Positions 8,509 to 25,248 of a DNA stretch of 64,000 nucleotides are shown in pieces. The stretch is taken from contig MQUF01000014.1 in NCBI GenBank assembly GCA_001914235.1, forward strand, positions 2,005 through 66,004, read 5' to 3'. Position 1 is the first letter of the stretch; every line of letters begins with the position of its first letter. The notes below the pieces were generated by a model. The model had not been told where the DNA came from and made no database searches. It saw only the letters and a list, made by a program, of their open reading frames with translations. The position numbers and the translations under genes are program-made. This stretch comes from Desulfobulbaceae bacterium DB1. Its GTDB lineage: Bacteria; Desulfobacterota; Desulfobulbia; Desulfobulbales; SURF-16.

Positions 8509-8528
8509 AACAATGTAAGGAAGAACGA

Positions 8529-9557: not shown

Positions 9558-9575
9558 AAAGGAAGTCGCGACACC

Positions 9576-11122: not shown

Positions 11123-11132
11123 AAAAAGACTC

Positions 11133-11159: not shown

Positions 11160-11191
11160 CTTGATTTGCGCTCAGCGCGCATCTTTTCCCC

Positions 11192-12025
11192 TCACCCGGC
11201 AAGGCGGATATCATTGGTGTCGATGATGATGAGCCTTTTTTTGTACAGGGCGCCGATCGCCTTTTTGAAGTTTTTTTTGCTCACCCCGAACAGGGCATAG
11301 ATATCTTCCGGCGGACTTTTATCGCTGACGGCGATTCTGCCGCCATGGGCCTGCAATGTCGCGAGGACGGCCTGGGCAATGTCGTCGACAGCCCGGCCGC
11401 CCGTTTTTTGCAGGCTCAGGTCGATTTTGAGGTCTTCCCGTATTTTTTTGATAAAGCCTTTCACCCGCCGACCGACGGCAAGCCGCTGAAACACCTCGTT
11501 TTTATAGATCATCCCTCCATGGCACTGGTTGACAATCGCCTTGTATCCCAGATCGGTTTGCTCGGCGATGAGCAGGTCCACCTCCTGCCCCTCGGTATAC
11601 TCCGGGGGCTGCAGATCGAGGAATTTGTCAATTTTGGCGGAGGCAATGATACGATTGGTTTTTTCATCCAAAAAGAGATGGACAATACAGGATTTGCCTT
11701 CCTGCATCCTCTGCCGTTGTTCACTTTTCGGCACAAACAGATCTTTTTCCAGCCCCCAATCAAGAAAGGCGCCCGAGGAGGTGATTGTCTTCACCCGTAA
11801 TGGGGCAAACTCTCCGACCGTTGCATGCGGTTTGCGGGTGGTTGCCCGCAGGTGATCCTCCTGGTCGGTATAAACAAAGACCTCAATCTCATCGCCGGCT
11901 TGGCATTTTTCCGGGACCTCCCGTGTCGGCAGGAGAATATCTCCTGATTCCCCGCCGTCAAGGAGCGCGCCGTCGTTCCGGGTTCTTTTTATCGTCAGTT
12001 TATTTATCTTGCCGATCCGTGCCAT
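11192..12025 (-). CDS. cvfB: S1-like RNA-binding protein, CvfB/YitL family
   Basis: 277 aa. Repeated S1-like segments and a C-terminal winged-helix-like region (KKNFKKAIGALYKKRLI). Overall resemblance to CvfB, recalled from memory. Confidence 0.7.
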   Translation of the reverse strand: MARIGKINKLTIKRTRNDGALLDGGESGDILLPTREVPEKCQAGDEIEVFVYTDQEDHLRATTRKPHATVGEFAPLRVKTITSSGAFLDWGLEKDLFVPKSEQRQRMQEGKSCIVHLFLDEKTNRIIASAKIDKFLDLQPPEYTEGQEVDLLIAEQTDLGYKAIVNQCHGGMIYKNEVFQRLAVGRRVKGFIKKIREDLKIDLSLQKTGGRAVDDIAQAVLATLQAHGGRIAVSDKSPPEDIYALFGVSKKNFKKAIGALYKKRLIIIDTNDIRLAG

Positions 12026-12567
12026 TTTTTCCCCTGTTGTTTTTTTCGTGGTGAGCGTGACCTTCTTCCCTTGTCGCGCCGATCCTGCGTCCAGCCGGCA
12101 AACTCCGGTTCGTACCCCACGGTGAACGGGCTGGTCGTGTTGTTGCGGAGGCTGAGGAAATGGGCATTATTTTTGTCAAAGGGACAAACCGGCATGGCGC
12201 ATGGTTCAAATCCGAACCTCTGGTAAAAGCCGGGGTCACCCAGGACAAAGATGGTGCTTTCCCTGATCTCATCCTGCCGCAAGGCAAAGCGGAGCAATTC
12301 CGAGCCGACCCCCTGCTTTTGAAACTCGGGCTTGACCGCCAGCGGCGCCAGATGCAACCCGCAAACCGCGGAGCCGTTATAGGCCCGCGAAAAAGTAATC
12401 GAGGCGATGACTGTATTGGTATGAATGCACACCCACTCATGCAGCGCCTTGTTGTTTTTGTGGAGATTTTCAACGAGCTGTGCTTCATGAATGCTGTCGG
12501 GGAAGGCCTGCCGCAGCAGGGCCGTGACCTTGGCATGATTTTCAGTCGTGAGTTTGCGTATTTTCAT
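12004..12567 (-). CDS. GNAT family N-acetyltransferase
   Basis: Start at the internal ATG 12567 (MKIRKLTTENHAKV...). Acetyl-CoA binding motif QKQGVGSELL and C-terminal YQRFGF. The upstream part of the 302-aa track ORF overlaps the neighbouring gene and is Arg/Pro-rich junk. Confidence 0.75.
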   Translation of the reverse strand: MKIRKLTTENHAKVTALLRQAFPDSIHEAQLVENLHKNNKALHEWVCIHTNTVIASITFSRAYNGSAVCGLHLAPLAVKPEFQKQGVGSELLRFALRQDEIRESTIFVLGDPGFYQRFGFEPCAMPVCPFDKNNAHFLSLRNNTTSPFTVGYEPEFAGWTQDRRDKGRRSRSPRKKQQGKKWHGSAR

Positions 12568-12634: not shown

Positions 12635-13972
12635 TCAAGCTGAGCAGCGGATCCGTTCGACGAGGCGTTTGAGGCGACCATGGGCGGCATGAAGCTCGGC
12701 AAGGTCGACAAAGGCCTTGGTCTTTTCGGCTTTGGCCGGATCAAAACCGCCGTGCAGGGGATGACGGCCGAGCAGCGCGGTGACAAAGGCGCGTTCCAGG
12801 CGATCACCCGGTTCATCCGACTGCTCCATCTCGGGCAGCTCATACCAGGCACGAAAGGCGGGCTCTTGCATGGCCTGCCGCGCCTCCTGCCGGAGGTCAA
12901 GGGTTGCGGCAAAGCCGTGGCGGAAGAGATCGGTTATGCACCAGATATCGAGCAGGGCGGCCGCTTTGACCGCGGCATCCGCGCCCTCGGGCGGGAGGTT
13001 TTCCTGCTGTGTTGACAGTGATTCCAGGCCCAGGGAAATGGTGTCCCGCACCCGTTCGGCAATATCCATGATCTGTTTGATATCATGTGTTTTTTCACCA
13101 TAGGCGATGATCGCGCTGTTGATGGCCCAGACGATTTCCTGTTCCAGGCGGGAAAGGAAATCCTTGTCCACAATCAGGGCCAGGGCCTGCTGTAACAGGG
13201 TGGTTTCGATCAAAGGGGAGGCATAGACGGAGGGAACCCGGGTGATGGCATTGTCCAGCGCTTCCTTGGTTCGGGGCAACGGCTGGTGCGTGGGTGGCCG
13301 GGAAAAGAGGACGGATGCCTCGTCCGGTGCGACAAAGCCGATATCCTCCATGCGGCAGTTGCGGAAGCGCAAGGCCTCTTCCTCGATCTGCGTTTCCAGA
13401 TCCACCCGAATCTGGCTGAGGAGTTCGTGGGCCGCGGTTGAATCGTGCTGGTACAGGGCATCCAGCAAGGTAAACGGATGGGTTTTCAGCGATATTTCCG
13501 ATTTTAATTCCAACAGATAGAAGCCGTCCGGAGTCATGGCGCGGGTCGTCTCGTTTTCCTCGTCCTCCGGCGGAACCTGATCGGTATCAGGATCATACAC
13601 CGTGACGGTCTTGGTCAGGAAGAGCAGCTGTAAGACGTAGTTCAGGGAGAAAAAAGCCGTGGCCAGCTTTCCGGGTCCGGCCAGCGCAAAGGCGGACAGC
13701 CATTCATCCAGGCTGTCAACGGCAAAGTCGTAACGGTTCCAGCAGTCGAGATCGATACATGCCTCCAATTGTTCCTGGTTGAGCTGGAGGAGGATGGGCA
13801 GGGCCTGATCCAGGCCGATCTCCCGGACAATATAGTAGGCTTCCAGGGGTTCGAGGCCGGCGACCTCGGCGGGCAGGTCGCTTGCGGCCAGAAGCCGCTC
13901 GCCCCTGCGGGCCAGGGCGCGGGTCAGATCAGCGCGAAACGGGGTTAATTCGACGATTTTGTTGTCTGTCAT
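12635..13972 (-). CDS. conserved hypothetical protein (~445 aa, acidic, helical)
   Basis: Long ORF with coding-like composition. Start placed at MTDNKIVELTPF (13972); the upstream ATG at 14020 is also possible. No motif recognised. Confidence 0.6.
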   Translation of the reverse strand: MTDNKIVELTPFRADLTRALARRGERLLAASDLPAEVAGLEPLEAYYIVREIGLDQALPILLQLNQEQLEACIDLDCWNRYDFAVDSLDEWLSAFALAGPGKLATAFFSLNYVLQLLFLTKTVTVYDPDTDQVPPEDEENETTRAMTPDGFYLLELKSEISLKTHPFTLLDALYQHDSTAAHELLSQIRVDLETQIEEEALRFRNCRMEDIGFVAPDEASVLFSRPPTHQPLPRTKEALDNAITRVPSVYASPLIETTLLQQALALIVDKDFLSRLEQEIVWAINSAIIAYGEKTHDIKQIMDIAERVRDTISLGLESLSTQQENLPPEGADAAVKAAALLDIWCITDLFRHGFAATLDLRQEARQAMQEPAFRAWYELPEMEQSDEPGDRLERAFVTALLGRHPLHGGFDPAKAEKTKAFVDLAELHAAHGRLKRLVERIRCSA

Positions 13973-14128
13973 ATTCTCTGTCAGTTGGAGGTGATCGAAG
14001 TTTCTTGCCGCAAAGGGCAATTTTTAAAGCAATTCTTTACTTGTTCCGCAACCGGAGTCAAGGGCGCCAGCATATACTTGATCCTCTCTATATAATGCAA
14101 TAATGCACACCTGTCCCTTCTATGTTTT

Positions 14129-14323
14129 TCAACCTTCAATCTTTTTGACGCGACCGACTGCGCCGCTTTCCAGTCGAACCTTAATGCCGTGGGGGTGGGT
14201 TGGGGATTTTGTCAGGATATCTTTGACGATTCCTTCCGTTAGTTTCCCGGATCGCTGATCCTGTTTCAAGACGATGAAAACGCGAAAGCCTGCTTTTATA
14301 TCGTTTCTGTTCATGCCGTTCAT
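14129..14323 (-). CDS. ywbE: YwbE family small protein
   Basis: 64 aa. DQRSGKLTEGIVKDILTKSPTHPHGIKVRLESGAVGRV matches the YwbE (DUF2196) pattern recalled from Bacillus. Confidence 0.75.
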   Translation of the reverse strand: MNGMNRNDIKAGFRVFIVLKQDQRSGKLTEGIVKDILTKSPTHPHGIKVRLESGAVGRVKKIEG

Positions 14324-14331
14324 GATTGACT

Positions 14332-15828
14332 TTATCCCTCGGTCTCTTGGTGAACCAGATCTTCAGCGATTTCCCGGAACTGCTCCAAGGCGGCTTCGAG
14401 GTCTTCGATGATCTCGGCGGCAATGATGCCGGGATCGGGCAGATTATCGGAATCCTCCAGGGATTCGTCCTTGAGCCAGAAGATGTCGAGGCTTGCCTTG
14501 TCGCGGTTGATGATTTCATCGTAATCATATGACCGCCAGCGGCCGGCTTGATTGTCTCCTGACCAGGTGGGGTTGCGGTCCCGGCGGTTGGCAGGGTTGT
14601 AGTTTTCGACAAACTCGTCCAGATCGCTTCGTTTCAAGGGGTTGGTCTTAAGGGTGAAGTGGATGTTGGTGCGGAGATCATAGATCCAGAGTTTTCTGGT
14701 CCACGGGGTTTCCGAGGCCGGTTTCTTATCAAAGAAGAGGACGTTGGCCTTGACCCCTTGAGCGTAGAACAGGCCGGTGGGCAAACGCAGCAGGGTGTGG
14801 ACGTCACAATCGTGCAGGAGTTTGCGGCGCACGGTTTCCCCGGCCCCGCCTTCGAAGAGGACATTATCCGGCACCACGATGCCGCAGCGGCCATGCTGTT
14901 TGAGCAGGGTTTTGACATGCTGGACGAAGTTGAGCTGTTTGTTGGAGGTGGTGGCCCAGAAATCCTCACGCTCAACAATATCCACCTCCTTGGAGGCCTT
15001 GCCGTCTTCGCCGACAATGGTGGTGCTGCTCTTTTTGCCGAAGGGGGGATTGGTCAGGACGATCTCAAAGCGGTCGCCGGGATCGGCGGCCAGGGAATCG
15101 GCCACGGTGAGCGGCAGTTTGCCGCCGTTATTGCCGATGCCGTGCAGCATCAGGTTCATGGCGCAGAGCCGGGCGGTATTCTGAACCAGCTCCCAGCCGG
15201 AAAAGGTCGTGTCCTTAAGCGCCCGCTTCTCCTCCTTGGTCATATTGGGGTTATGGGCGATGATGTATTCATGGGCGGCCAGCAGAAAGCCGCCGGTGCC
15301 GCAGGCCGGGTCGCAAATGGTCTCACCCGGTTTGGGCCGGACCACATCAACCATGGCCTGGATCAGCGGGCGCGGGGTGAAATACTGGCCGGCCCCGGAC
15401 TTGGTATCCTGGGCGTTTTTTTCCAGCAAGCCCTCGTAGGCATCGCCCTTGACATCGGCGCTCATCATTGACCAGTTTTCCTTGCCGATCAGATCGACCA
15501 GCAAACGGCGCAGTTTGGCCGGGTCCTGAAACTTGTTCTGGGATTTATTGAAGATCAGCCCCAGTAAGCCTTTTTCCTTCCCTAATTGATCCAGGGTATG
15601 GCGGTAATGATCAAACAGCTCATCGCCGTCTTTCTTGATCAGGCTGGGCCAGTCGTACCCTGCCGGCACCGCACTCGGCTTGTTATACGGGGCGTGGGTC
15701 CGCTCATCCGACATCTTGAGAAACAGCAGATAGGTCAACTGCTCGACGTAATCACCATAACTCATCCCATCATCCCGCAGGACGTTACAGTAGTTCCAGA
15801 GTTTTTGGACGATATTTGCTGGGGTCAT
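14332..15828 (-). CDS. hsdM: type I restriction-modification system, DNA methyltransferase subunit M
   Basis: 498 aa. HsdM N-terminal domain (LWNYCNVLRDDGMSYGDYVEQLTYLLFLK). AdoMet motif DPACGTGGFL. Catalytic NPPFG. Confidence 0.95.
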   Translation of the reverse strand: MTPANIVQKLWNYCNVLRDDGMSYGDYVEQLTYLLFLKMSDERTHAPYNKPSAVPAGYDWPSLIKKDGDELFDHYRHTLDQLGKEKGLLGLIFNKSQNKFQDPAKLRRLLVDLIGKENWSMMSADVKGDAYEGLLEKNAQDTKSGAGQYFTPRPLIQAMVDVVRPKPGETICDPACGTGGFLLAAHEYIIAHNPNMTKEEKRALKDTTFSGWELVQNTARLCAMNLMLHGIGNNGGKLPLTVADSLAADPGDRFEIVLTNPPFGKKSSTTIVGEDGKASKEVDIVEREDFWATTSNKQLNFVQHVKTLLKQHGRCGIVVPDNVLFEGGAGETVRRKLLHDCDVHTLLRLPTGLFYAQGVKANVLFFDKKPASETPWTRKLWIYDLRTNIHFTLKTNPLKRSDLDEFVENYNPANRRDRNPTWSGDNQAGRWRSYDYDEIINRDKASLDIFWLKDESLEDSDNLPDPGIIAAEIIEDLEAALEQFREIAEDLVHQETEG

Positions 15829-15883
15829 TTCTAAAGCCTTTTTGCGGCACAGATTTACATAGAGATCCCCTCATCCATTGCAG

Positions 15884-17311
15884 TTACTTGCGCCGGTCGA
15901 GGGTGTTTTTTGCCACGGTAAAACAGTGAATACTGCTGGGGGTAAACTCGACTTGCACATCCGCGATATCCTTGATGCCGGAGCGTGAAAGTGTTGTCAC
16001 CAGGGGGATTCTTTGAAGTTCATGTTTCTTAACAAATCCCAACAGCCCCTTAATCTCCCGATGATCATCAAAAGCCCGGTCGGACCATTTCACCTCAACG
16101 GCAAAGCGTGGTCTTTGCTGGGCGTCAAGGCTTACCGAGTCCACTTCACCGCTTCTCCACCGCGCATAATATAACGAGTCCACAAAAGCTGCATTATGCA
16201 GCCACTGGCTGAATACGGCGGTTTCAACCAGCTGCCCCATGGCTTCATGATGTTCATCAACGGGTCCGAACAGGGCCGCACGCATGGTTGGGTTGGTAAG
16301 ATAGACTTTGAAGGTCATCATCCTTCTGAAGTGGGCCGCATCCTGATCAATCCTGCGAATCCTGCGGATGAGAAAGGCTGCCTCAAGGTATTCGAGATAC
16401 TTGACGAGGGTATTTTTTGCCACATGAGAAGTCTTGGAAAGATCATCAAGACTCAATTCCTGCCCGGTGTTATAGGCAAGTGTATTAAAGAGGCTGTTCA
16501 ACTCCTGAATATCCGTAATTCCATACAGGATAGGCAAATCACGCAAGAGGACTTTGTCGATAATATCACTTTTAATGTAACGCCTTGGATCTTGCCGGAC
16601 AGCTTCTGAAAAGACGGCCTCAGGGTAGCCGCCAAAGTTCAGGTAGTCGACAAAAGCCTTATTGAGACCTTGGATGTCCTCGGTCTCATACCGTGGAGTA
16701 TTCCCGCTGCCAACAACTTCCCGGATCAATATTTTCTCCAGGCCGATGAAGCGCAAGTATTCAGCAAAGGTGAGAGGAGGAAGAACATATTCGGTAAACC
16801 TTCCGGCCCCGGATTCCGCACTCTTGGTTTTCAGTGCTGCCGCCGCCGAACCCGTGGCCACAAAACTGATGCCGCGAAAGGTATCGACCAATGACTTCAG
16901 GTGGACTTCCCAGCCTTTGAGATATTGGATTTCATCGAAAAACACATATAAGCGGGTGCCGTCCGGACGAGTAAACAACCGTTGGAATCTGGTAACCAAA
17001 CTCTCCAGGGACAACCCGGTATAGATTGGCGTCTCCATGGAAACATAGAGGATGTCCCGACCTTTTATTCCGCCATTATCAAGCAGATCCTGGATTGCGT
17101 GGTAGACCATAATCGTCTTGCCGACCCGGCGCGGCCCAAGCAAAACCACGGCCCGATTCACCCCGGTCTGCCCCACAAGAGACGAGAAATCCGGCAGATA
17201 GGCCCGGCGCGGGAACGCTTGATAGTCGGGTTCGATCCCGGCCCCTGCCTGCCACCATGGGTTATCGAGCCGTAAACGATATTCTATTTCTTTTTCAGAT
17301 ACTTGCAGCAT
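15884..17311 (-). CDS. AAA-type ATPase with DUF4143-like C-terminal domain, inserted between hsdS and hsdM
   Basis: About 475 aa from ATG 17311 (MLQVSEKEIEYRL). Walker A GPRRVGKT, Walker B YVFFDEIQY. The C-terminal half resembles the AAA_14/DUF4143 architecture. Confidence 0.75.
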   Translation of the reverse strand: MLQVSEKEIEYRLRLDNPWWQAGAGIEPDYQAFPRRAYLPDFSSLVGQTGVNRAVVLLGPRRVGKTIMVYHAIQDLLDNGGIKGRDILYVSMETPIYTGLSLESLVTRFQRLFTRPDGTRLYVFFDEIQYLKGWEVHLKSLVDTFRGISFVATGSAAAALKTKSAESGAGRFTEYVLPPLTFAEYLRFIGLEKILIREVVGSGNTPRYETEDIQGLNKAFVDYLNFGGYPEAVFSEAVRQDPRRYIKSDIIDKVLLRDLPILYGITDIQELNSLFNTLAYNTGQELSLDDLSKTSHVAKNTLVKYLEYLEAAFLIRRIRRIDQDAAHFRRMMTFKVYLTNPTMRAALFGPVDEHHEAMGQLVETAVFSQWLHNAAFVDSLYYARWRSGEVDSVSLDAQQRPRFAVEVKWSDRAFDDHREIKGLLGFVKKHELQRIPLVTTLSRSGIKDIADVQVEFTPSSIHCFTVAKNTLDRRK

Positions 17312-17460
17312 ACGAACCCTATAAGGGCAAAACAATGAACAAAGAGTTGTCAAATAAGATCAAAACATTAACCTTGCTAGACAATTAGCAAAAAAAACTT
17401 TACAAATCAAGACATTACGATTGCATGAAACAAATAGTTTTTACAGATTGCGCTCTTGAC

Positions 17461-17502
17461 CCGCTCATCCGACATCTTGAGAAACAGCAGATAGGTCAAC
17501 TG
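17461..17502 (-). repeat. 42-bp exact copy of hsdM codons ~30-43 (isolated hsdM fragment downstream of hsdS)
   Basis: ccgctcatccgacatcttgagaaacagcagataggtcaactg is identical at 15700-15741 (inside hsdM) and 17461-17502 (hsdS/ATPase spacer). Confidence 0.95.
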
Positions 17503-17547
17503 TCAGGCCCTTTCCGAGGCCGAGAGGATCTAATAGCTTTGCCTCGT

Positions 17548-19014
17548 TCATACTTTTTCCTTCTTATCTGTGTTGCGCAGTATAAGCTGGCCGGAAAAGG
17601 CCTTGCTCAGAATTGATTGGCGCAGACGTTCAGCCCGTTTGAGGTTGGCCTCGACCTGGGCCTCGATTTCGCGGGTCAGGGAGAGGCGGCGGTCGACTTC
17701 GGCGACGATGCGGTGTTGTTCGGCGAGGGGCGGGAGTGGAATCACGATTTGTCTCAATCCTGCTAGTGGAACAGTTTTTTGGGCTGTTCCTGTTGCTATC
17801 GCAGTTGCTTGCCTAAATACGTAATTCGAAGCCATCGCAAAAGTGAGATAGTCCATCGGAGAATTTTCATGCGGGCGTAGTATAGCCATGTGGCGCTGAA
17901 TACTAAAGCGTTTTTCGGTTGTGACCCGAACAGGAATGCCATAGCTCCCCACCAAAGTATATAACAGGTCTCCTTGTTTCGGTTGGCGATTGGGATCAAG
18001 AGATTGGTAATAGTCTTCCGCTACATGGCGCGTATTAGAAAAATCAATTTTGCCGCTACGAACATTACCAATTACAATAAATGGAATTCCTTGATCAGTT
18101 TGCGGCGGCGGTTGGTGATCGCCGTCAGTAAGGTGTGCAATTAGTTGCTCGACAGTCGCCCACACCCATCCCTCCGGCAATTCAGGCAGGTCGCTGGTGT
18201 CGGGCGGGGCAGGTTCCTTGTATTTTCCTTTGCCTTGCCACTGGCTGCGACGGGTTTCGAGGATGCGTTGCAGAAGGTGCTCCCCGGTTTCAAGGTCGCG
18301 GCCTTGGCGGCGGGCGGCCGCTCCCGGCGTCCTGCCTTCCGCGGCACTGGCGCGTCCCTGTGCGGCGAGTTCGGCTTCGGTTTCAACCAGGCGTCCTTCG
18401 ACAGCGGCTTTGAGTACGGCGGCTTTGTAGCGTTTGAGGTTGGCCTTGACGCGCTTGAGATTGGTAACGGCTTCATCAAGCCGGGAGAATTGTTTTTCGA
18501 TTTCCGCAACGATGCGTTTTTGTTGTTCAGGCGGAGGCAGAGGAATTTCGCACTCTTTCAAATAGGGAGTTGTAACACGCCGTTGACCAACAGCACCGGT
18601 CATGTATCGTTCTGCTTCGCCACGAAAATTTTTACTAGAAACGTAGTAATAGATGTATCTGGCGTCGATACCTTCTCGGGGACGTAATACATGAAACTCT
18701 GTTGAACCAAAACCGAGATCATTTTTTAGTTTAGGCACGATAGCCATTTTCCCGTTTTCCATACACGGCGTAATTTTAGCAAACAGAACATCTCCTTCTT
18801 GGAATGGAGTGAAACCTTTTTTAACTTCTCCGAATAAGCGTTCTCCACTTACATCTATTGATCCATCTGCCGCCCCAACAGCTGGCATCGGGACAAACGA
18901 GACATTTAGGGCATCGGAAATACCAGCTTTGTTGATGCGAGGATTCACATCAGCGATGTCTTCTATTGTTGAAACTGTCCAGCCGACAGGAAGTTGTTTG
19001 TTATCCACTCTCAC
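17548..19014 (-). CDS. hsdS: type I restriction-modification system, specificity subunit S
   Basis: 488 aa. Two target-recognition domains separated by coiled-coil conserved regions (LPPPEQQKRIVAEIEKQFSRLDEA and LPPLAEQHRIVAEVDRRLSLTREIE). GTG start overlaps the upstream stop (GTGA). Confidence 0.92.
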   Translation of the reverse strand: MRVDNKQLPVGWTVSTIEDIADVNPRINKAGISDALNVSFVPMPAVGAADGSIDVSGERLFGEVKKGFTPFQEGDVLFAKITPCMENGKMAIVPKLKNDLGFGSTEFHVLRPREGIDARYIYYYVSSKNFRGEAERYMTGAVGQRRVTTPYLKECEIPLPPPEQQKRIVAEIEKQFSRLDEAVTNLKRVKANLKRYKAAVLKAAVEGRLVETEAELAAQGRASAAEGRTPGAAARRQGRDLETGEHLLQRILETRRSQWQGKGKYKEPAPPDTSDLPELPEGWVWATVEQLIAHLTDGDHQPPPQTDQGIPFIVIGNVRSGKIDFSNTRHVAEDYYQSLDPNRQPKQGDLLYTLVGSYGIPVRVTTEKRFSIQRHMAILRPHENSPMDYLTFAMASNYVFRQATAIATGTAQKTVPLAGLRQIVIPLPPLAEQHRIVAEVDRRLSLTREIEAQVEANLKRAERLRQSILSKAFSGQLILRNTDKKEKV

Positions 19015-19310
19015 GCCGCCAAAGCCTCATTCAACTCTCCAATCATCGCATTCAACTCCTCACCAAAAAGCTGATACACCTTACCCAATCCACCTTCCTG
19101 GGCAAAAGGCGCATATCCGAAATCGGTCGCTCCAGGCGTCCATGCCTCCCGCGACACGAATACGTCCTGGATGTCGTCCGTCTCAATACCGAGATTGGCG
19201 GTAATATGCTCGCGGATCATATCGGAGACCCATGGAAAACACATACGAAAATCCATATGATGTTTTTGGACAGAGAAAACATCATATGGGATATTTTGTT
19301 TCATCTTCAT
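19011..19310 (-). pseudogene. hsdR 3'-terminal remnant (tail copy 3); frame intact, 99-aa ORF
   Basis: The C-terminal 71 aa (MIREHITANLGIETDD...GGLGKVYQLFGEELNAMIGELNEALAA) parallel the end of HsdR. The first 28 codons are unrelated. Stop overlaps the hsdS start. Confidence 0.7.
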
Positions 19311-19398
19311 GCTATCTCTTCATCATATGCAAAAAACAACTCACTTTGCGGGCAAATCAAAGAGGGATTTTTCGTCTAATCCGTGATATATTTAAACC

Positions 19399-19587
19399 AT
19401 GCAAACGAAAAGCTTGAAAGAAACCAATCCTTATCTGAAAGCCCCGGTAACCCGGGAAAAAGGTTTGTGGTCCAGCGTGTCGTCATCATCGGCGATCGAA
19501 GGCGTCCATGTCACCAGAGAGAAGGTCACCGGCACGACGGTTACTTCTCCTCGTAAGCCTGAAGAGTCCGGTCAATCACCGCGCTGA
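19399..19587 (+). CDS. candidate FicA/VbhA/YhfG-like antitoxin (small ORF with SxxxEG inhibitory-helix motif)
   Basis: 62-aa ORF containing SSSSAIEGV, which matches the [S/T]xxxE[G/N] motif. Compare E. coli YhfG ASRRLEGV, recalled from memory. Convergent with fic and overlaps its 3' end by 47 nt. No clear RBS. Confidence 0.45.
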   Translation: MQTKSLKETNPYLKAPVTREKGLWSSVSSSSAIEGVHVTREKVTGTTVTSPRKPEESGQSPR

Positions 19588-20194
19588 AAAATTCTCCCAT
19601 GGGTTGATAATCCCTATCCATTCCCTTGCGTACAGCCGCAAAATACTCCTCTTTTCTTTCCCCCTCGAACTCACTGAAATCCAAGGGCGGCAATCCCGCC
19701 TGCAGGGCCATAAGCATTGCCAGAAGCCGGGACAGTCTGCCGTTTCCTTCGCGGAACGGGTGGATCAATAATAATTCGGTGTGCACAATTGCCAGGGCCT
19801 GGATCTGCTCCTCTCGATCTGCAAAGGTGCAGGGCGTAAATCGGCGCAACTCATTTTTCTCGAAATCCGCCATCAGTTGCGGGATGACTCTGGGCAAGGC
19901 AAAAGTAAACCCGCCTTTGCTGATGGTTACCTGCCGATATTTCCCAGCCCACTCATAGACCGGACCAAGCCAGTTGCGATGCATATTGCAGATGTCGCCA
20001 GCGGTGAATTGATGATCCTGATCGAAGATCTCGGTCATTTGTTCCGTGACCCGGTAGAGTTCTCTTGTTTCTAACTCTTCAATCTCCTGCTTGTCTTTTA
20101 TATGGAGAAGATTTTTGAGAACAAGTCCCCCGGATCCTGCCTCATATTGATCCTCAATGAAGCCGTCGGTTTTATATCGTCCGGACTTTTTCAT
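19541..20194 (-). CDS. fic: Fic-domain protein (AMPylase-type toxin, class I: no internal inhibitory motif)
   Basis: Canonical Fic motif HPFREGNGRLSRLL. About 217 aa from ATG 20194, 1 nt after the upstream stop. I find no [S/T]xxxE[G/N] within the protein. Confidence 0.88.
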   Translation of the reverse strand: MKKSGRYKTDGFIEDQYEAGSGGLVLKNLLHIKDKQEIEELETRELYRVTEQMTEIFDQDHQFTAGDICNMHRNWLGPVYEWAGKYRQVTISKGGFTFALPRVIPQLMADFEKNELRRFTPCTFADREEQIQALAIVHTELLLIHPFREGNGRLSRLLAMLMALQAGLPPLDFSEFEGERKEEYFAAVRKGMDRDYQPMGEFFSAVIDRTLQAYEEK

Positions 20195-20195
20195 G

Positions 20196-20675
20196 CTAGG
20201 CCGCCAAGGCCTCATTTAACTCTTCAATAATTACATCCGAATCCTCGCCAAAGAATTGATGCTCCCGGCTCAAACCACCTTCCGGGGTGGAAGGTGCATA
20301 ATCAAAATCGGTCGATCCCATCATCCCTGTCAACCGTGACACGAATACGTTCTGGATGTCGTCCGTCTCAATATCGATTGAATTGACCCGGTAGCCGACG
20401 GAGATTATGGCATCCAGATTATAATGGGTTAACGTTCGCCGAACCTGCCTTTTTCCCTCTTTTTGAACTGCCGAGAAATCCTCGGTAGTTGCTTTTTTCT
20501 CAAGTTCCTCATCCGCAAAAATATTTTTCAGATGGAGGCTGATATTGTCCGAGGAGGTGTCAAAGAGTTCTGCCATCTGCCTCTGGGTAAGCCAGACGGT
20601 GTCGCGGTCGAGCCGCACCTCAACGGTTCTCTCTTCTGCCTCATAGATAATTATTTCAACATGCTCATTTTGCAT
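20196..20675 (-). pseudogene. chimeric ORF: RhuM-family N-terminal ~100 aa fused in frame to hsdR tail copy 2
   Basis: N-terminus VEVRLDRDTVWLTQRQMAELFDTSSDNISLHLKNIF...HYNLDAIISVGYRVNS matches the RhuM N-terminal region (full-length RhuM is ~330 aa). C-terminus IETDDIQNVFVSR...DFDYAP...VIIEELNEALAA matches the HsdR tail. ATG at 20675 lies 1 nt after the hsdR stop. Confidence 0.7.
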
Positions 20676-20676
20676 A

Positions 20677-23475
20677 TCAAGCCGCCAAAGCCTCATTCAA
20701 TTCTTCAATTATCACATTCAACTCCTCGCCAAAAAGTTGGTGTACCTTTCCCAGCCCGCCTTGCTGGGCAAATGGCGCATAGTCGAAATCGTCGGTTTCA
20801 ATGCCGAGATTGGCGGCGATATGGTCGCGGATCATGATCAGCCAGTTACGCTGTTCGTCGGTAAATTTCCTGCCGCTTGCCTCCTGCTGGGCGAGCCAGG
20901 CCTTGAAGTTGGCCTCAACCTTTTCCGGAAACGGTACCAGCTCATTCTCCTGATGCATGGCAAAGCGGACCAGGGAAACAAGATCAGTCAAAATATGCGG
21001 GGCATTGGCCCCCTTGACCCTGGCCTTTTCCAGAGCCGCATAAGCATCCCAGAGATTATCAACCCGGAAATGGTGCGGCGGCTTTTCGATCCGAGCGGCC
21101 AGCTCCTTGATATCCGCAAAACGCAAGCGGCTCTTGTAGGGCCTGCTGTAGAGAACCTGCAGGGCGGTGATCTCGTCGCGGTTGTCGGCCAGAAACTGCT
21201 CGAAGGATTGGACCATGGACTTGACCTTTTCCAGGGCCTCGACGGAAAACGCGGCGGAGATCACCTGATCTTCACTGATGTTATCAATGATCTGCTCGTT
21301 CTTTCGCTTGACCTCGACCAGGAAGTTGCGGAGCGCCGGATTATGCAGCGGCCTGGTGGCCTCGACAATCAGTTTGACCCCGGCCTGTTTGATCTGCTCT
21401 TCGCTGGGCTCGGTGCCGCCGTTATCCTGCCTGGCCCTGTCAATCTGATTGTCGGGCTTGATGGCGGTGACCAGACCCGCGGTCAACTGTTCGATGGTCT
21501 TACCATTGGAAAGAAGGGTCACCTGGCGGTCATCCGCAGGGGTTATCTGGCGGCCGATGCGGGCCATGCGGGCGGCAAGGGACGAGATCACATCCGGCTC
21601 GGTATTGCCAAGCGCGATCGCCTGCAGGAGTTTTTCGAAACTGACCGTGGGCTTTCTCTCCATGGGCCGGGAATCGGTCTTGTCCATCTCGCAGACGCCG
21701 ACGCAATCGACAATGATGAAATGGTCCTTGACCCTGGCATCCGGGGTGACCGATTGTAAGTCGCTCTGGTTGATGATCCGGACGCCGCGGCCCTTCATCT
21801 GCTCGAAGAAGGAGCGGGAGCGGACGGCCCGCATGAACATGACGATTTCCAGCGGCTTGATGTCGGTGCCGGTGGCGATCATGTCAACGGTAACGGCGAT
21901 GCGGGGATTGAAGCTGTTGCGGAAGGAGGCGATCAGCTGTTCCGGCGTGCCGCCGGAGGTTCTGTAGGTGATCTTCTGGGCGAAATCGTTGCCCTTGCCA
22001 AACTCCTCGCGGATGATCTTGACGATATCCTCGGCGTGGCTGTCGTCTTTCGCGAAGATCAGGGTCTTGGGCACATATTCGCGGCCCGGAAAGATCTCGG
22101 TCAGCACCTTGTCGCGAAAGGTTTGGACAATGGTGCGGATTTGGTCGACGGCCACCACATCGCGGTCGAGCTTGTTGGGATCGTACTCGAAATCTTCATC
22201 GAGCTTTTCCCAGCGGGTGGTGCGGGTCTCGCGGTCGCGTTTGTCGATATAGTAGCCGGACTCAACCTTGGAGCCTGCTTCGGTGATCCTGGTCTTGATT
22301 CGGTAGACATCGTAATTGACGTTGACGCCATCGGCCACGGCCCGTTCGTGATCGTATTCCATCACCAGGTTGCGGTTGAAGAAGCCGAAGGTCTGCTTGG
22401 ACGGGGTAGCGGTGAGGCCGATGAGAAAAGCGTCGAAATACTCCAGCACCTGCCGCCAGAGGTTGTAGATGGAGCGATGGCATTCATCGGTGATGATGAA
22501 ATCAAAGGTTTCGATGGGGATATCGGGGTTGTATTCCAGGGGTGGGATTTCCTTGAACAGACTGTCCAGCCCGTGAGGCGATTGGTCCTCGGCCTCTTCG
22601 GGGAGCTCTTGGCCCCGGAGCATGGAGTAAAGCCGCTGGATGGTGCAAATGCAGACCTTTGCGGTGGTATCGATGGTGTTGGAGGTGAGGCGCTGGACGA
22701 TGAACTCCTCGCTGAACTTGTAATTGTTGTAGGGTGAGACGTATTGCTGGAACTCTTTTAAGGTCTGCTTGCCCAGGTTGCCGCGATCGACCAGAAAGAG
22801 GACGCGCTTGGCCCCGGCGAACTTGATGAGCCGGTAGATAATGGAAATGGCGGTGAAGGTCTTGCCGCTGCCGGTGGCCATCTGGATCAGCGACCGGGGG
22901 CAGTCGCGGGCCAGGGATTTTTCGAGATTTTTGACCGCCTGGATCTGGGCGGGCCAGAAACCGTCTTCGATGAGAGGCGGCATGGTGCGGAGGCGGCCCC
23001 GCAGGGTGGAATGCCGGCTGAGATATCCGGAAGTTGCTTCGGCGGTTTGGCTGGGGATTTTCTCTGCTTCCTCGAAAAGATACTCCGGCTTATGAAAGGC
23101 GAAGACCTGGCGGGAGCGGGGGGCGGGATCAAGGTTATTGGTAAATCTGGTCTCGTCGCCGGTGGATTCGTAACAAAAGGGCAGCGGTTTGGCCCAGGCA
23201 GGGAGGCCGTCGGGCAGGCCGTGGGCGTATTTGTCGGACTGGATCTCAACCCCGGTTAGCGTAGTGCCGGTCTTTTTGGCCTCGATGACGCCTGCGGCCT
23301 TGGCGTCCACATAGAGAAGATAATCGGCAAAGCCATGTCCGCTTTTCAGGGGAAATTCACGGATAGCCACGCCCTTGGCGGCAAAGATGTTGGTGTCCTT
23401 GACATCCTGAACCAGCCAACCGGCCTGGGTAAGCAGTTGATCTATTTTTTCGCGGGCGTGAATTTCGCAGGTCAT
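20677..23475 (-). CDS. hsdR: type I restriction-modification system, endonuclease/translocase subunit R
   Basis: 932 aa. N-terminal HsdR nuclease-like domain. Helicase motif I MATGSGKT, motif II ITDECHR, motif VI QMKGRGVR. C-terminal helical tail. Confidence 0.95.
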   Translation of the reverse strand: MTCEIHAREKIDQLLTQAGWLVQDVKDTNIFAAKGVAIREFPLKSGHGFADYLLYVDAKAAGVIEAKKTGTTLTGVEIQSDKYAHGLPDGLPAWAKPLPFCYESTGDETRFTNNLDPAPRSRQVFAFHKPEYLFEEAEKIPSQTAEATSGYLSRHSTLRGRLRTMPPLIEDGFWPAQIQAVKNLEKSLARDCPRSLIQMATGSGKTFTAISIIYRLIKFAGAKRVLFLVDRGNLGKQTLKEFQQYVSPYNNYKFSEEFIVQRLTSNTIDTTAKVCICTIQRLYSMLRGQELPEEAEDQSPHGLDSLFKEIPPLEYNPDIPIETFDFIITDECHRSIYNLWRQVLEYFDAFLIGLTATPSKQTFGFFNRNLVMEYDHERAVADGVNVNYDVYRIKTRITEAGSKVESGYYIDKRDRETRTTRWEKLDEDFEYDPNKLDRDVVAVDQIRTIVQTFRDKVLTEIFPGREYVPKTLIFAKDDSHAEDIVKIIREEFGKGNDFAQKITYRTSGGTPEQLIASFRNSFNPRIAVTVDMIATGTDIKPLEIVMFMRAVRSRSFFEQMKGRGVRIINQSDLQSVTPDARVKDHFIIVDCVGVCEMDKTDSRPMERKPTVSFEKLLQAIALGNTEPDVISSLAARMARIGRQITPADDRQVTLLSNGKTIEQLTAGLVTAIKPDNQIDRARQDNGGTEPSEEQIKQAGVKLIVEATRPLHNPALRNFLVEVKRKNEQIIDNISEDQVISAAFSVEALEKVKSMVQSFEQFLADNRDEITALQVLYSRPYKSRLRFADIKELAARIEKPPHHFRVDNLWDAYAALEKARVKGANAPHILTDLVSLVRFAMHQENELVPFPEKVEANFKAWLAQQEASGRKFTDEQRNWLIMIRDHIAANLGIETDDFDYAPFAQQGGLGKVHQLFGEELNVIIEELNEALAA

Positions 23476-23518
23476 GAGTTTTCATTTATCTCATATCATG
23501 GTTGCAGCAAGATATTTT

Positions 23519-23914
23519 TCATTTTTTATCTTTTGTTTTTCCCGCAAGCAAGCTCTGCAGATTGGCAAAGGGGTTGTGGGTGACGGATGATGGCCGCTCA
23601 CCCGGAATGGTCGGACCATCCTGCCACTCGGATTCCAGGAAGCGAGAATGCTCATTGTCGTGGCAATAGAGGCAGAGCAGCTCCCAGTTGCTGCCGTCCG
23701 GGGGGTTGTTGTCGTGGTTGTGGTCCTTGTGGTGGACGGTGAGATCCTTGAGCTTTTTGCCGGAAAATTCCCTGCCGCACTTGGCGCATACCCAGGGAAA
23801 AATTTTTAATGCCTGTTCCCGGTAGGTTTTCTGCCGGAGTTCCAGGTCGCGCAGGGCGTCGGTTATTGCCCGGCCCTTGGCGTTTGTTGCGGATAACGCC
23901 TGTTTGGTCGTCAT
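23519..23914 (-). CDS. yajD: HNH endonuclease, YajD family
   Basis: 131 aa. C..C...HHKDHNHDNNPPDGSNWELLCLYCHDNEH is a YajD-like HNH/zinc motif. Ends 43 nt upstream of hsdR on the same strand. Confidence 0.8.
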   Translation of the reverse strand: MTTKQALSATNAKGRAITDALRDLELRQKTYREQALKIFPWVCAKCGREFSGKKLKDLTVHHKDHNHDNNPPDGSNWELLCLYCHDNEHSRFLESEWQDGPTIPGERPSSVTHNPFANLQSLLAGKTKDKK

Positions 23915-24099
23915 GTGTCGATCTCCATTGAAACCAGCATGAAAGAAAGAGCCATAAATGTCAATATTGTTGACGTATTGGTCGCCACGGCCGGAAACGA
24001 AAAAAAGAGATTTCCTGTTTGAGCTCGATCTGATGAATGGTATGATTCACAGGGAAGCGATTTTTTGTCTGCCCGCACAATTCATCCTCCGGAGTCCAA

Positions 24100-25248
24100 T
24101 TGATGAAGCCGCTTATCGACACCCAGGAATTTCTTTCTCTTTCGTCTTTTCTAAATTACCAGCTCGCCGGCGAACCTGTCAACTGGCGGGGTATTCTTAA
24201 CCTGATGGGGGGGGAGGCCCTGGAGCAGGACGAGATGTCGGAGGGTTTCCTTCTGGAGGCGCTCGAGTATCTCGGCGACGCTTACGGGAAACAGAAACGC
24301 CGCCTTGGCCCTCTTGCCATTCTTCATCCGATCCGTGCTTCAACCCTACTGGCCAGGGCCTGTGACCAGCCCAGCACCCTCAATCTGCTCTGCGCCCTTT
24401 TTCATGACAAAGAGGAGGATCTCACCTCGGAAAAATACAGCCCGGAAATCTGGAGCCGCCTTGATGCCAAGTTTCATCATCTGCTGGAAAAAATAGATGC
24501 CGGGGCGAACTGGTTTCTCAACGAGCGGATCGCCTTTCTGGCCAAGCCGCAAGGGCAGAATTATACCGCATATCTGGGCCGGTTGCTGGAGAAGGCAAAA
24601 GAGTCTCCGGAACTGGCCATGGTGAAGCTGGCTGACAGGCTGGACAACACCCTTGATCTGCGGGTTGATCTGCAGGATTCCGCCGACCGCCCCCACTGTT
24701 TCCAGGTCATCTTTGATATTCTTTTTGTCAATTCCTACAAGGGGCGGCACCCCGGCAGGCCTCATCCGGCGACCGGCAGGATAAACGGCGCCATGCGGCT
24801 CTATCAGCTTTATAAAAACTCGGTTTTTCTTTCCATGCTGCGCAGTGAAAAGGTGCCTCTGTCTGACGGCGCGCGCAAGCTGTTCTACTCGCTGGCCGTT
24901 GCCGGCATTCGTGAGGCGCAGACCATTCTGCTGCATATTTTTTCCTATCACGTAAAGGAGCCGAGTGCGCAGCGGTCTATTCTGTTCGAGGCCATGGAGT
25001 ATTCCCACAGCGGAGGATTCGAGGCGATCAGGGAAGAAGGGCCCAATGAACTGGACGGCCTGTTTCGCAAATATTTTGTTTATGACGATTCGGAAAGCAA
25101 AAAAAGGTGCCAGGCTGATCTGTATGAAAACAAAAGGCTGATGGCGCTGGTCGCCGTATCTTTTCTCATTATCTTTGCTAATTTCATCAACAGTGACGAC
25201 TATGTGATTCAAGGCATCTCCGCCGCCGGCATCATCCCGCAGAAATGA
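24100..25248 (+). CDS. HD-domain protein, divergent RelA/SpoT-hydrolase-like
   Basis: 382 aa. HPIRASTLLA...LFHDKEEDL...VKLADRLDNTLDLR parallels SpoT HD-hydrolase blocks (HP...LLHD..ED...KLADRLHN). The long C-terminal extension has no recognised motif. Confidence 0.55.
   Translation: MMKPLIDTQEFLSLSSFLNYQLAGEPVNWRGILNLMGGEALEQDEMSEGFLLEALEYLGDAYGKQKRRLGPLAILHPIRASTLLARACDQPSTLNLLCALFHDKEEDLTSEKYSPEIWSRLDAKFHHLLEKIDAGANWFLNERIAFLAKPQGQNYTAYLGRLLEKAKESPELAMVKLADRLDNTLDLRVDLQDSADRPHCFQVIFDILFVNSYKGRHPGRPHPATGRINGAMRLYQLYKNSVFLSMLRSEKVPLSDGARKLFYSLAVAGIREAQTILLHIFSYHVKEPSAQRSILFEAMEYSHSGGFEAIREEGPNELDGLFRKYFVYDDSESKKRCQADLYENKRLMALVAVSFLIIFANFINSDDYVIQGISAAGIIPQK

Follow-up and report, generated by a model that had tools for sequence, protein, structure and literature searches.

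Cargo genes at both junctions of a type I restriction-modification operon and a candidate convergent Fic antitoxin in Desulfobulbaceae bacterium DB1

Analysis of the window, i.e. the whole 64,000-nucleotide stretch of DNA under study, revealed a type I restriction-modification (R-M) operon at positions 14332-23475 with cargo genes nested between its subunit genes. Judged from its sequence, this is probably a working-looking operon of the EcoEI/EcoAI-like kind in the lineage-typical order hsdR-hsdS-hsdM, whose R|S and S|M junctions form a two-slot landing pad for self-contained, autonomous defence or toxin modules that are exchanged by recombination on the hsd gene ends. The locus contains orphan ends of hsd genes as scars, a sibling strain carries swapped cargo, and the arrangement recurs in other loci. 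We infer that each module functions independently and that its position brings it mainly co-transfer and co-expression. The original prediction had described one uninterrupted minus-strand string from yajD to ywbE and had proposed that the ATPase and Fic may act with, or be regulated by, the R-M complex. This description was borne out in part, and the interpretation is partly supported. All features are compiled in Table 1.

Table 1. Features of the hsd locus and its neighbours (positions in the window; order follows the minus strand)
Feature	Position	Strand	Remark
yajD (HNH)	23914-23519	minus	chromosomal neighbour, outside unit
hsdR, 932 aa, intact	20677-23475	minus	EcoEI_R_C tail (type IB-like)
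rhuM' stump	20196-20675	minus	RhuM part + hsdR tail copy 2
fic, 217 aa, intact, PDC-S04	19541-20194	minus	class-I-like Fic
putative ficA, 62 aa	19399-19587	plus	converges on fic
perfect 14-bp inverted repeat (hairpin)	19252-19290		between ficA and hsdR' fragment
orphan hsdR 3' end, copy 3 (69 codons + stop)	~19011-19220	minus	
hsdS, 488 aa, intact, two target-recognition domains	17548-19014	minus	
orphan hsdM 5' piece, 42 bp (codons 30-43, QLTYLLFLKMSDER)	17461-17502	minus	
16-mer TTGATCTTATTTGACA	17348-17363	minus	upstream of ATPase
AAA_14 + DUF4143 ATPase, 475 aa, intact, PDC-S01	15884-17311	minus	
hsdM, 498 aa, intact	14332-15828	minus	
ywbE/DUF2196	14323-14129	minus	chromosomal neighbour, outside unit

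ORFs, motifs and domain searches gave the order R-S-M for the hsd genes on the minus strand. HsdR contains the domains HSDR_N, ResIII, Helicase_C and EcoEI_R_C (Pfam) and matches PADLOC REase_I, while its best NCBIfam matches, PRK11448 and the EcoAI/FtnUII family, both stay under the curated (equivalog) cut-offs. Its translation shows D...EAK, MATGSGKT, DECH, TATP and QMKGRGVR, and thereby the PD-(D/E)xK nuclease motif and SF2 helicase motifs of a type I R-M subunit. HsdS consists of two Methylase_S stretches and is covered by PADLOC Specificity_I over residues 4-482 (PDLC03127, 4e-133), with the two target-recognition domains (TRDs) typical of type I systems. HsdM matches N6_Mtase (9e-69) and HsdM_N in Pfam and MTase_I in PADLOC (PDLC03026, 3e-199), and has the motifs DPACGTGGF and NPPFG of a gamma-class N6-adenine methyltransferase. 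All ORFs named beforehand are thus present at their places on the minus strand with the expected domains, and the three R-M subunits are indeed intact, with full-length frames, catalytic motifs and two TRDs. In the classical type I mode, an M2S complex would methylate a bipartite site, and R2M2S would translocate on and cut unmodified DNA.

The genes yajD and ywbE, counted as members of the string in the original prediction, were not found adjoining related hsd loci, and the flanks of the related locus L170 differ from those of the window; therefore, both are chromosomal neighbours and the unit was limited to hsdR through hsdM. Between hsdR and hsdS, a dead RhuM stump is followed by an intact Fic gene, and this cargo sets the two hsd genes 1662 nt apart; in the S|M junction, a gap of 1719 nt contains the intact gene of the AAA_14/DUF4143 ATPase. 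Both separations had been predicted. The G+C content of the cargo (0.46-0.50) differs from that of hsdR and hsdM (0.56-0.61). However, the string is not uninterrupted, because a conserved plus-strand gene overlaps the 3' end of fic, and the claim of minimal spacers fails between fic and hsdS (526 nt) and between hsdS and the ATPase gene (236 nt). Rfam searches of positions 13900-24100 gave no match at E <= 1.

The three cargo families correspond to the PADLOC candidates PDC-S05 (RhuM), PDC-S04 (Fic) and PDC-S01 (ATPase). RhuM' keeps only ~100 N-terminal residues of ~340, the rest being hsdR tail. It matches positions 1-39 of 252 of Pfam Virulence_RhuM, its PDC-S05 matches are limited to the first ~100 profile positions, and a RhuM+Fic protein of 341 aa can be aligned with it over residues 15-109; the C-terminal Fic/DOC-type region of full-length PDC-S05/RhuM proteins (~330 aa) is missing. 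The predicted rhuM' is therefore present, but as a dead stump fused to a copy of the hsdR tail.

The 3' end of hsdR occurs in three copies in the unit, two of which are orphans. Copy 1 is represented by the last ~180 nt of hsdR itself (20681-20858), copy 2 (20377-20196) is joined in frame to the RhuM residues (20675-20378), and copy 3 matches positions 113-162 of Pfam EcoEI_R_C. Copies 2 and 3 have a common 51-nt insert that copy 1 lacks. A gene starts directly after each of the tails, twice in the form stop + 1 nt + ATG (rhuM' behind the hsdR stop, fic behind the copy 2 stop) and once as GTGA, where the stop of copy 3 overlaps the GTG of hsdS; the hsdS start hence still overlaps an hsdR tail. 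At the S|M junction, the 42-bp orphan of hsdM (17502-17461) is 100% identical to 15741-15700, has a stop codon directly upstream in frame and is out of frame with an ATG overlapping the hsdS stop. Orphan hsdM 5' ends upstream of the ATPase gene were also found in L110 (479 bp), L090 and L113 with differing breakpoints, the order in L011 is SIR2/HerA | hsdM' | fic | hsdM' | DUF6557 | DUF3800 | hsdM, and in L170 and L171 (hsdR-fic-ficA-remnant-hsdS) a 49-nt hsdR remnant precedes hsdS. Taken together, the orphan hsdR 3' ends and the hsdM piece appear to mark successive recombination events, at least three in number. A leftover ORF of 28 codons follows hsdS, and a 17-codon leftover past the hsdS stop (MNEAKLLDPLGLGKGLT) gave only chance-level matches to the cargo N-termini of relatives. 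A tblastn search for further orphan hsdR tails in plasmids gave six weak matches only; one of them, unannotated, adjoins an IS256 and is uninformative.

Exchange of cargo is visible among relatives. Beginning at the hsdM ATG, the sibling contig L002 shows 19 mismatches to the window over 5107 nt (99.63% identity). It encodes an identical HsdM protein, but AbiEi/AbiEii stand at the position of the ATPase gene, and the break falls exactly on the ATG of hsdM. In L170, whose hsdM is 91.4% identical, SLATT-TGT-Ogg-QueC-TIR is found upstream and identity again begins at the hsdM ATG, so the variable region ends at this codon in both relatives. The match of hsdS to L170 is confined to the central 134 nt (94.8%), and therefore the TRDs were swapped. 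The order R-S-[cargo]-M with other cargo also occurs in L016, L074 and L111 as well as in L170. Near-identical copies of the 16-mer TTGATCTTATTTGACA lie upstream of the ATPase gene in L091 and L096 and upstream of AbiEi in L002. Exact-sequence look-ups with HsdR, YajD and YwbE matched only the source contig and L002, and thus gave no further sibling strains.

From these scars we infer that cargo would enter and be exchanged by recombination using conserved hsd gene ends as homology anchors, namely the 3' tail of hsdR and codons ~1-43 of hsdM. The opposite end would join illegitimately, thereby leaving orphan copies of gene ends behind. Site-specific insertion was set aside, since the hsdM breakpoints vary among loci (codon 43, codon ~160 and others) and the unit contains no recombinase gene.

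The intact cargo gene of the R|S junction encodes a Fic protein with the motif HxFx(D/E)GNGRxxR (HPFREGNGRLSR), which is invariant in 29 homologues. It matches PDC-S04 (PDLC04839, 7e-76), and its best match in the PDB is Fic-1 (8wt0), followed by VbhT. By homology to Fic-1/AntF and VbhT, it would be a class-I AMP-transferase and a GyrB/ParE-type toxin. In this class of FicT/FicA systems (VbhT/VbhA, EcFicT/YhfG, Fic-1/AntF), a Fic core of ~200 aa with an intact motif and without an inhibitory helix in cis is paired with a separate small SxxxE protein, and the antitoxins of EcFicT and VbhT are encoded directly upstream. Fic-1 itself is a GyrB-AMPylating toxin, and its antitoxin AntF, also encoded directly upstream, uses S24...E28 (PMC13327609, PMC5033356). 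The Fic protein of the window shares these properties: inspection of its translation showed no (S/T)xxxE(G/N) inhibitory helix motif in cis, and this motif is carried by a separate small protein.

The gene of this small protein, which is uncalled in the annotation of the source contig, runs towards fic from the opposite strand, the two sharing 47 nt at the fic 3' end. It is kept in 31 of 80 Fic loci, always antisense and downstream of fic (31/31). Its most conserved feature, S30xxxE34G, matches the Fic inhibition motif; M1, L6 and E34 are invariant and N10, L13 and S30 nearly so. In total, 423 representative clusters of the small protein were found. On these grounds, the 62-aa gene probably encodes a FicA-type antitoxin, and the convergently encoded SxxxE protein would hold Fic in check. 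Searches of Pfam, NCBIfam and PDB sequences with the putative FicA, alone or as profile, gave nothing significant. In contrast to the upstream antitoxin genes of the known systems, the small gene lies downstream, and similarity of its protein to AntF, VbhA or YhfG could not be detected. What lies upstream of fic in the window is the hsdR tail, and a classical upstream antitoxin, i.e. a conserved same-strand neighbour of fic, was absent from 24 loci. The sole recurring same-strand neighbour in these loci is an hsdM 5' fragment. As another candidate, the C-terminal domain of HsdR was considered as a built-in Fic inhibitor and rejected, as (S/T)xxxE(G/N) was absent by inspection. The nearest relatives of Fic (92% identical) occupy the same hsdR-fic-hsdS position, but for most relatives the setting is not an hsd locus (11 of 80 have hsd genes within 9 kb), and fic-ficA pairs are found in such settings as well.

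The cargo of the S|M junction has the HMM match (PDLC04787, 1e-57), the domain pair (AAA_14, 3e-31; DUF4143, 5e-23) and the intact Walker motifs of a PDC-S01 ATPase. Walker A reads GPRRVGKT and Walker B FFDEIQ, with G-K-T and D-E invariant, and D391...E406-x-K408 in the C-terminal part is likewise invariant in the homologue alignment. The structural model shows an ORC/Cdc6-like AAA+ fold and a confident C-terminal domain, with residues 245-343 being poor; Foldseek of the model against the PDB returned generic AAA+ proteins (ORC/Cdc6, RuvB, RFC, Apaf-1) and no match informative on the C-terminal domain. With its AAA+ part and a C-terminal domain of the PD-(D/E)xK type, the protein would presumably be an NTP-dependent nuclease.

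For its neighbourhood, 27 informative loci with ATPases of at least 63% identity were counted. A related hsdM lies directly downstream in eight of them, at a distance of 0-150 nt between ATPase stop and hsdM start, and upstream in three; the available flank of 15 loci has no hsd gene, and hsd genes were absent from the flanks of relatives below 60% identity. The divergence of ATPase and hsdM is correlated (Mantel r 0.71, p 0.003, n = 9); this ATPase subclade has co-diverged with this hsdM lineage. Intact ATPase genes also stand beside a decayed hsdM (L091, L113-L115), beside a type III R-M system (L006) and behind a 28%-identical, unrelated type I family (L007), and 98%-identical ATPases occur in two differing arrangements (L109 and L110). 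In several relatives, hsdM is frameshifted or deleted. The predicted non-random link of the cargo families to R-M systems therefore holds, since each matches a PADLOC candidate family derived from embedded genes, a related hsdM directly follows the ATPase gene in eight of 27 loci and lies upstream of it in three, and the closest Fic relatives sit between hsdR and hsdS.

A functional coupling to the R-M complex, as originally proposed, was weighed against autonomy of the modules. The textbook case is EcoprrI-PrrC, in which an anticodon nuclease inside hsdMSR is masked by the R-M complex and triggered by T4 Stp; PrrC combines an ABC-ATPase with the anticodon nuclease. The window resembles it in having non-R-M genes nested in, and co-oriented with, a type I operon, but its cargo is an AAA_14/DUF4143 ATPase plus Fic, the occupant is exchangeable without a change of hsdM, and Pfam and PADLOC searches gave no PrrC or ABC matches in the unit. 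A PrrC-style guarded backup, with ATPase and/or Fic silenced by the type I complex and released by a phage anti-restriction protein, is unlikely. It would fit the recurrence of the co-diverged ATPase subclade beside one hsdM lineage, the translational coupling of fic to an hsdR stop here and in L170, and the rationale for embedding proposed by Payne et al. (2024, bioRxiv 10.1101/2024.01.29.577857). Representatives of PDC-S01 and PDC-S04 in isolation gave no protection, as expected if a partner or a specific trigger is needed, which counts against autonomy. However, strains with the same hsdM have AbiE or SLATT/TIR cargo. The ATPase gene has also remained intact where the adjacent hsdM is decayed or where the neighbouring system is type III or an unrelated type I, and its product is AAA_14/ORC-like rather than an ABC-ATPase with anticodon nuclease. 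The candidate inhibitor that Fic has of its own and its frequent occurrence away from hsd genes likewise speak against regulation by the R-M complex. The comparative data thus argue against an obligate dependence of the cargo on the type I complex, and because the ATPase gene persists beside decayed hsdM genes and fic-ficA pairs exist outside hsd loci, we prefer autonomous modules in a two-slot landing pad.

The co-divergence and the eight abutting hsdM genes speak against autonomy, as they also fit selection that has kept the two genes adjacent over long periods, and perhaps a link in function; possibly, the co-diverging ATPase is a genuine functional partner of this hsdM lineage. That ATPase and hsdM are an ancestral two-gene unit, with the ATPase as accessory subunit, or as regulator of either methylation or restriction, and AbiE and other cargo as secondary replacements, is nevertheless quite improbable: the co-divergence, the short intergenic distances and the hsdM 5' pieces travelling with the ATPase gene are in line with it, but the replacement in the sibling left the HsdM protein identical and the DNA from hsdM to the flank nearly so, almost identical ATPases occur in two arrangements, more than half of the close relatives and all of the distant ones lack an hsd gene in the flanks seen, and PDC-S01 reportedly ranks among the most frequent candidate families of prokaryotes and is mostly not embedded. 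Slightly less probable still is a decaying locus, with the R-M system on its way out and an arrangement without present function. The rhuM stump, the orphan hsdR and hsdM pieces, the leftover ORF behind hsdS and the damaged hsdM genes of relatives would agree with decay, whereas hsdR, hsdS, hsdM, fic, ficA and the ATPase gene are all full-length frames with catalytic motifs, and the hsdS start retains its overlap with an hsdR tail. The two-slot landing pad remains the best reading.

The association of these families and the backup idea are not new, as both appear in Payne, Hughes, Fineran and Jackson (2024). There, PDC-S01, PDC-S04 and PDC-S05 were set up as families of genes nested in type I R-M, BREX and DISARM systems. 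A PDC-S05 representative protected, and the PDC-S01 representative without protection was challenged with T4, T5 or T7 in E. coli B. The claim that the combination was uncharacterised is hence half right: embedding and the idea of a PrrC-like backup were published and representatives tested. Compared with the embedded genes in that paper, the window shows the same three families, the same kind of host system and the same co-orientation, but both slots are filled at once and one occupant is a stump; PDC-S04, filed there as a single gene, comes here with a conserved convergent small gene; and gene-end scars and cargo swaps between sibling strains are not described in the paper's passages on embedding. 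As in defence islands and the 'genomic sink' concept of Makarova et al. (2011), which Payne et al. (2024) take up, differing defence cargo occupies one position in related genomes. In contrast to such hotspots, the flanks are subunit genes of one defence system, the boundaries lie at the hsdM ATG and the hsdR stop, and duplicated gene ends were left.

The locus does not enlarge the list of defence genes, and its embedding pattern is already catalogued. It is an unusually readable case of cargo embedding, with precise slot boundaries, scars and a near-identical strain with other cargo. A tentative extension, possible rather than likely, is that hsd gene ends are generic homology handles, i.e. 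integrase-free cassette slots, with the EcoEI_R_C tail of hsdR and hsdM codons ~1-43 serving as handles across the whole type I lineage, and that PDC-S04 is a two-gene FicT/FicA system with a convergent antitoxin; this would be new. If true, orphan gene ends would be a searchable footprint of past cargo turnover and, if general, a simple genomic signature for it in R-M operons that could expose past or unrecognised embedded genes. Likewise, PDC-S04 would gain a new antitoxin family without Pfam or NCBIfam model. The convergent small gene suggests that PDC-S04 may be a toxin-antitoxin pair, although it was catalogued and assayed as one gene, and this bears on the reading of the negative defence assay.

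Finally, a strong hairpin with a perfect 14-bp stem lies between fic and hsdS (dG -16.8 kcal/mol, z -4.8), and on the minus strand a U-rich run comes directly behind it. The earlier claim that the string has no internal terminator is doubtful for this reason. The hairpin was scored as terminator-like, and plus-strand promoter-like sites overlap it; it could either terminate hsdR-fic transcripts or serve ficA as an operator.

The locus is chromosomal. It is bordered by mreBCD-pbp2-rodA and, at its opposite end, by DUF6178, a GNAT gene, cvfB and haem-synthesis genes; contig Ga0052186_10002385 (153.5 kb) of JGI metagenome 3300003154 matches the window at 100% identity. By translation, domain searches and PADLOC searches, all genes named in the original prediction were found on the minus strand with the expected domains. 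Nuclease, helicase and methyltransferase motifs are legible in the HsdR and HsdM translations, so that the restriction-modification (R-M) system looks intact, as had been proposed. The top NCBIfam matches of HsdR were PRK11448 and the EcoAI/FtnUII type I R families, both under the cut-offs. A 404-aa HsdS call in the JGI annotation was set aside, since the PADLOC specificity model spans residues 4-482 of the long GTG-initiated form, which is therefore real. The centre of HsdS (window 18150-18420, residues ~200-290) contains a long Ala/Arg/Gly/Pro-rich stretch (AELAAQGRASAAEGRTPGAAARRQGRD...). Compared with the related locus L170, conservation of hsdS is limited to 134 nt at 18395-18528 and both target-recognition domains differ, thus specificity has been swapped. 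The names YajD and YwbE are correct, as both proteins exceed the NCBIfam cut-offs; neither gene was found beside related hsd loci, and L170 is flanked differently. Both had been counted as part of the gene string but are neighbours, and the unit proper covers 14332-23475.

Features of the R-M unit and its cargo (window coordinates)
Feature	Position	Strand	Description
hsdR	23475-20677	minus	932 aa; HSDR_N, ResIII, Helicase_C, EcoEI_R_C tail
fic	20194-19541	minus	217 aa
putative ficA	19399-19587	plus	62-aa ORF; no call in the source contig annotation; convergent, overlaps last 47 nt of fic
hairpin	19252-19290		between ficA and orphan hsdR tail/hsdS; perfect 14-bp inverted repeat, dG -16.8 kcal/mol, z -4.8
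hsdS	19014-17548	minus	488 aa; two target-recognition domains; PADLOC specificity model over residues 4-482
28-codon ORF	17467-17553	minus	starts at ATG overlapping hsdS stop
ATPase gene	17311-15884	minus	475 aa; AAA_14/DUF4143
hsdM	15828-14332	minus	PADLOC type I methyltransferase model, 3e-199

In PADLOC, all three inserts match phage defence candidate (PDC) families, namely PDC-S01 for the ATPase (1e-57), PDC-S04 for Fic (7e-76) and PDC-S05 for the RhuM piece (5e-44). According to Payne et al. (2024; bioRxiv 10.1101/2024.01.29.577857), the members used to build these families lay embedded within BREX, DISARM and type I R-M systems, and PrrC-like backup and co-regulation are discussed as a rationale for embedding. 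The association between cargo and R-M genes, which had attracted interest in the original prediction, is therefore already catalogued. The original observation is largely right; still, the finding represents one more case of a pattern known from the literature and no new type of system. To that pattern the locus contributes a legible history of the embedding process, evidence that strains of near-identical sequence have exchanged cargo, and a convergent gene that probably encodes an antitoxin for PDC-S04. In later tests, a RhuM-family PDC-S05 representative lowered plating of T7 and T5 ~1000-fold, the PDC-S01 representative was not among the protective systems of the same screen, and the PDC-S04 representative gave no defence in its native host. 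Published work places PDC-S01 among the commonest candidate families and describes its members as fusions of an ATPase with a PD-(D/E)xK-type domain. The ATPase studied here is intact, with invariant Walker A and B residues and an invariant D391...E406-x-K408 inside a confidently modelled C-terminal domain, and its fold search returned ORC/Cdc6-, RuvB- and RFC-like AAA+ proteins. RhuM' is a stump of ~100 N-terminal residues, which aligns with residues 15-109 of a 341-aa protein with RhuM and Fic domains. Full-length RhuM-family proteins (334-341 aa) with Virulence_RhuM and Fic Pfam matches are encoded in the comparison loci L172 (11389-12414, minus) and L175 (15250-16254, minus), a few kb from a Fic/ficA pair, with Mrr, HigB/HTH and methyltransferase genes around them; shared neighbourhoods may be frequent for RhuM and this Fic (also L019, L020 and L050).

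At the junction between hsdR and hsdS, the 3′ end of hsdR is present in three copies. The first, the end of the real gene, leads through TGA and 1 nt into the rhuM ATG; the second, joined in frame to the rhuM stump, leads through TAG and 1 nt into the fic ATG; the third, an orphan, comprises 69 codons, and its stop overlaps the hsdS GTG. A 51-nt insert is common to copies 2 and 3 and absent from copy 1, hence the tails derive from different hsdR alleles. In L170 and L171, where Fic is 92% identical to that of the window, hsdR is separated by 1 nt from fic, and then come a convergent ficA (annotated there by JGI), a 49-nt remnant of the hsdR tail and hsdS. Since this layout is that of the window minus the rhuM event, fic seems to have been in place before the rhuM piece was inserted.

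Between hsdS and the ATPase gene lies a 42-bp piece identical to hsdM codons 30-43. In its own frame a stop codon comes immediately before it, and it does not share the frame of the ATG that overlaps the hsdS stop (ATGA). From this ATG, a 28-codon ORF (MNEAKLLDPLGLGKGLTVDLSAVSQDVG) crosses the orphan piece in another frame; it probably represents the remaining start of a previous slot occupant, and no relatives of it were found. Orphan hsdM pieces upstream of the ATPase or other cargo recur elsewhere. L110 carries a 479-bp copy of the hsdM 5′ end (93.7%) directly upstream of a related ATPase, followed by full hsdM, and L090 and L113 carry shorter pieces. In L011 (Thermodesulfovibrionia, 6159-12303), SIR2-like/HerA, hsdM codons 1-23, fic/ficA, hsdM codons 4-37, DUF6557, DUF3800 and the real hsdM follow each other, so several cassettes are stacked at a single hsdM 5′ end with orphan pieces between them. 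The breakpoints vary between loci, there is no recombinase, and the hsdM segment in the scars is the stretch of the N-terminus that is best conserved throughout the lineage. The simplest reading of the scars is that cargo would enter by recombination anchored in a conserved gene end, with an illegitimate join on the other side. No description of such gene-end scars was found in the searched open-access literature.

Cargo at the junction between hsdS and hsdM is exchangeable. In L002, a contig of a sibling strain (Logan SRR28386961), HsdM is identical to that of the window, and 99.63% identity over 5107 nt starts exactly at the hsdM ATG; upstream stand AbiEi_3/AbiEii, the AbiEii stop overlapping the hsdM start. 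Identity to L170 (91.4%) likewise starts at the hsdM ATG, and its slot contains SLATT, TGT-like, Ogg-HhH, QueC and a ThsB-type TIR gene. L016, L074 and L111 keep the R-S-cargo-M order with still other occupants. R-S-M order is therefore a trait of this hsd lineage, and both junctions are variable slots. The same HipA_2-DUF3037-ATPase block was seen in two type I families, after hsdS in L007 (6150-9449) and between hsdS and hsdM in L111 (2555-5687). In the window (17348-17363, minus), L091 (758-773) and L096 (176-191), the ATPase ATG is preceded at 37-52 nt by the 16-mer TTGATCTTATTTGACA (<=2 mismatches), which also occurs upstream of AbiEi in L002 (36-51), where there is no ATPase; it may be a promoter/operator element or the remains of an older ATPase cassette.

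The expected enrichment of ATPase and Fic homologues near hsd genes was borne out, and the cargo is linked to R-M genes for these particular clades. All counts are lower bounds, since tblastn was run with a small query set. Of the metagenome loci with an ATPase >=63% identical, 27 extended far enough downstream to be assessed; among these, an hsdM relative (60-89% identical) was located <=150 nt downstream in at least 8, 1.4 kb downstream in at least one and upstream in at least three; with the same queries, no hsd genes of the window's family were found where the ATPase was <60% identical. Pairwise identities of ATPase and HsdM are correlated (Mantel r 0.71, permutation p 0.003, n = 9), which indicates long co-inheritance. 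For fic, hsd genes were detected within 9 kb in only 11 of 80 genome loci (at least). Relatives of 81% identity lie outside hsd operons yet near other defence genes. Enterobacterial relatives, presumably ordinary chromosomal fic, had no hsd genes but one weak opposite-strand methyltransferase-like match in Yersinia (L035).

It had also been proposed that the cargo may act with, or be regulated by, the R-M complex. Comparison between loci tends to speak against obligate coupling: one and the same hsdM accompanies different slot contents; the ATPase is full length beside frameshifted or internally deleted hsdM in L091, L113, L114 and L115; ATPase relatives of 79-82% identity stand after a type III R-M system (L006) or, with HipA_2 and DUF3037, close an R-M-S operon from another family (L007-L009); 98%-identical ATPases occur in two different arrangements (L109 vs L110); and Fic seems to have an inhibitor of its own. 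The co-divergence of ATPase and hsdM and the negative single-gene PDC assays point the other way. A PrrC-like dependence of the cargo on R-M is therefore retained as unlikely, and a role of the ATPase as an accessory of this hsd lineage as more doubtful still.

Fic is intact, with an HPFREGNGR motif that does not vary among 29 homologues. The nearest relatives of known structure are class I toxins, first Pseudomonas Fic-1 (8wt0), which AMPylates GyrB, then VbhT and E. coli FicT; like these, the Fic of the window has no inhibitory helix of its own. A DNA block ~110-170 nt 3′ of the fic stop is conserved across unrelated loci and corresponds to the 5′ end of an ORF on the opposite strand. Intact antisense ORFs of 48-70 aa with the N-terminus MxKKSLxxTNPYL... 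occupy this position in 31 of 80 fetched Fic loci. In their alignment, M1, L6 and E34 are invariant and N10, L13 and S30 nearly so, and S30xxxE34, with G or T after it, corresponds to the Fic inhibition motif (S/T)xxxE(G/N). In AntF, the Fic-1 antitoxin, the equivalent S24 and E28 touch the active site of Fic, and inhibition requires E28. A profile search yielded 423 representative clusters, nearly all of 50-100 residues; the few database entries of the family are all named "hypothetical protein", with no Pfam family. The 62-aa ORF is very probably a FicA-type antitoxin. The candidate ficA is convergent, whereas the antitoxin gene is immediately upstream of the toxin gene in Fic-1/AntF, EcFicT/YhfG and VbhT/VbhA; no description of a convergent ficA was found in the searched open-access text. 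The minus-strand string described originally is thus not quite uninterrupted. The hairpin beyond ficA has a U-rich tail on the minus strand, and promoter-like sites of the plus strand overlap it; it could be a terminator of hsdR-fic transcripts or a ficA operator.
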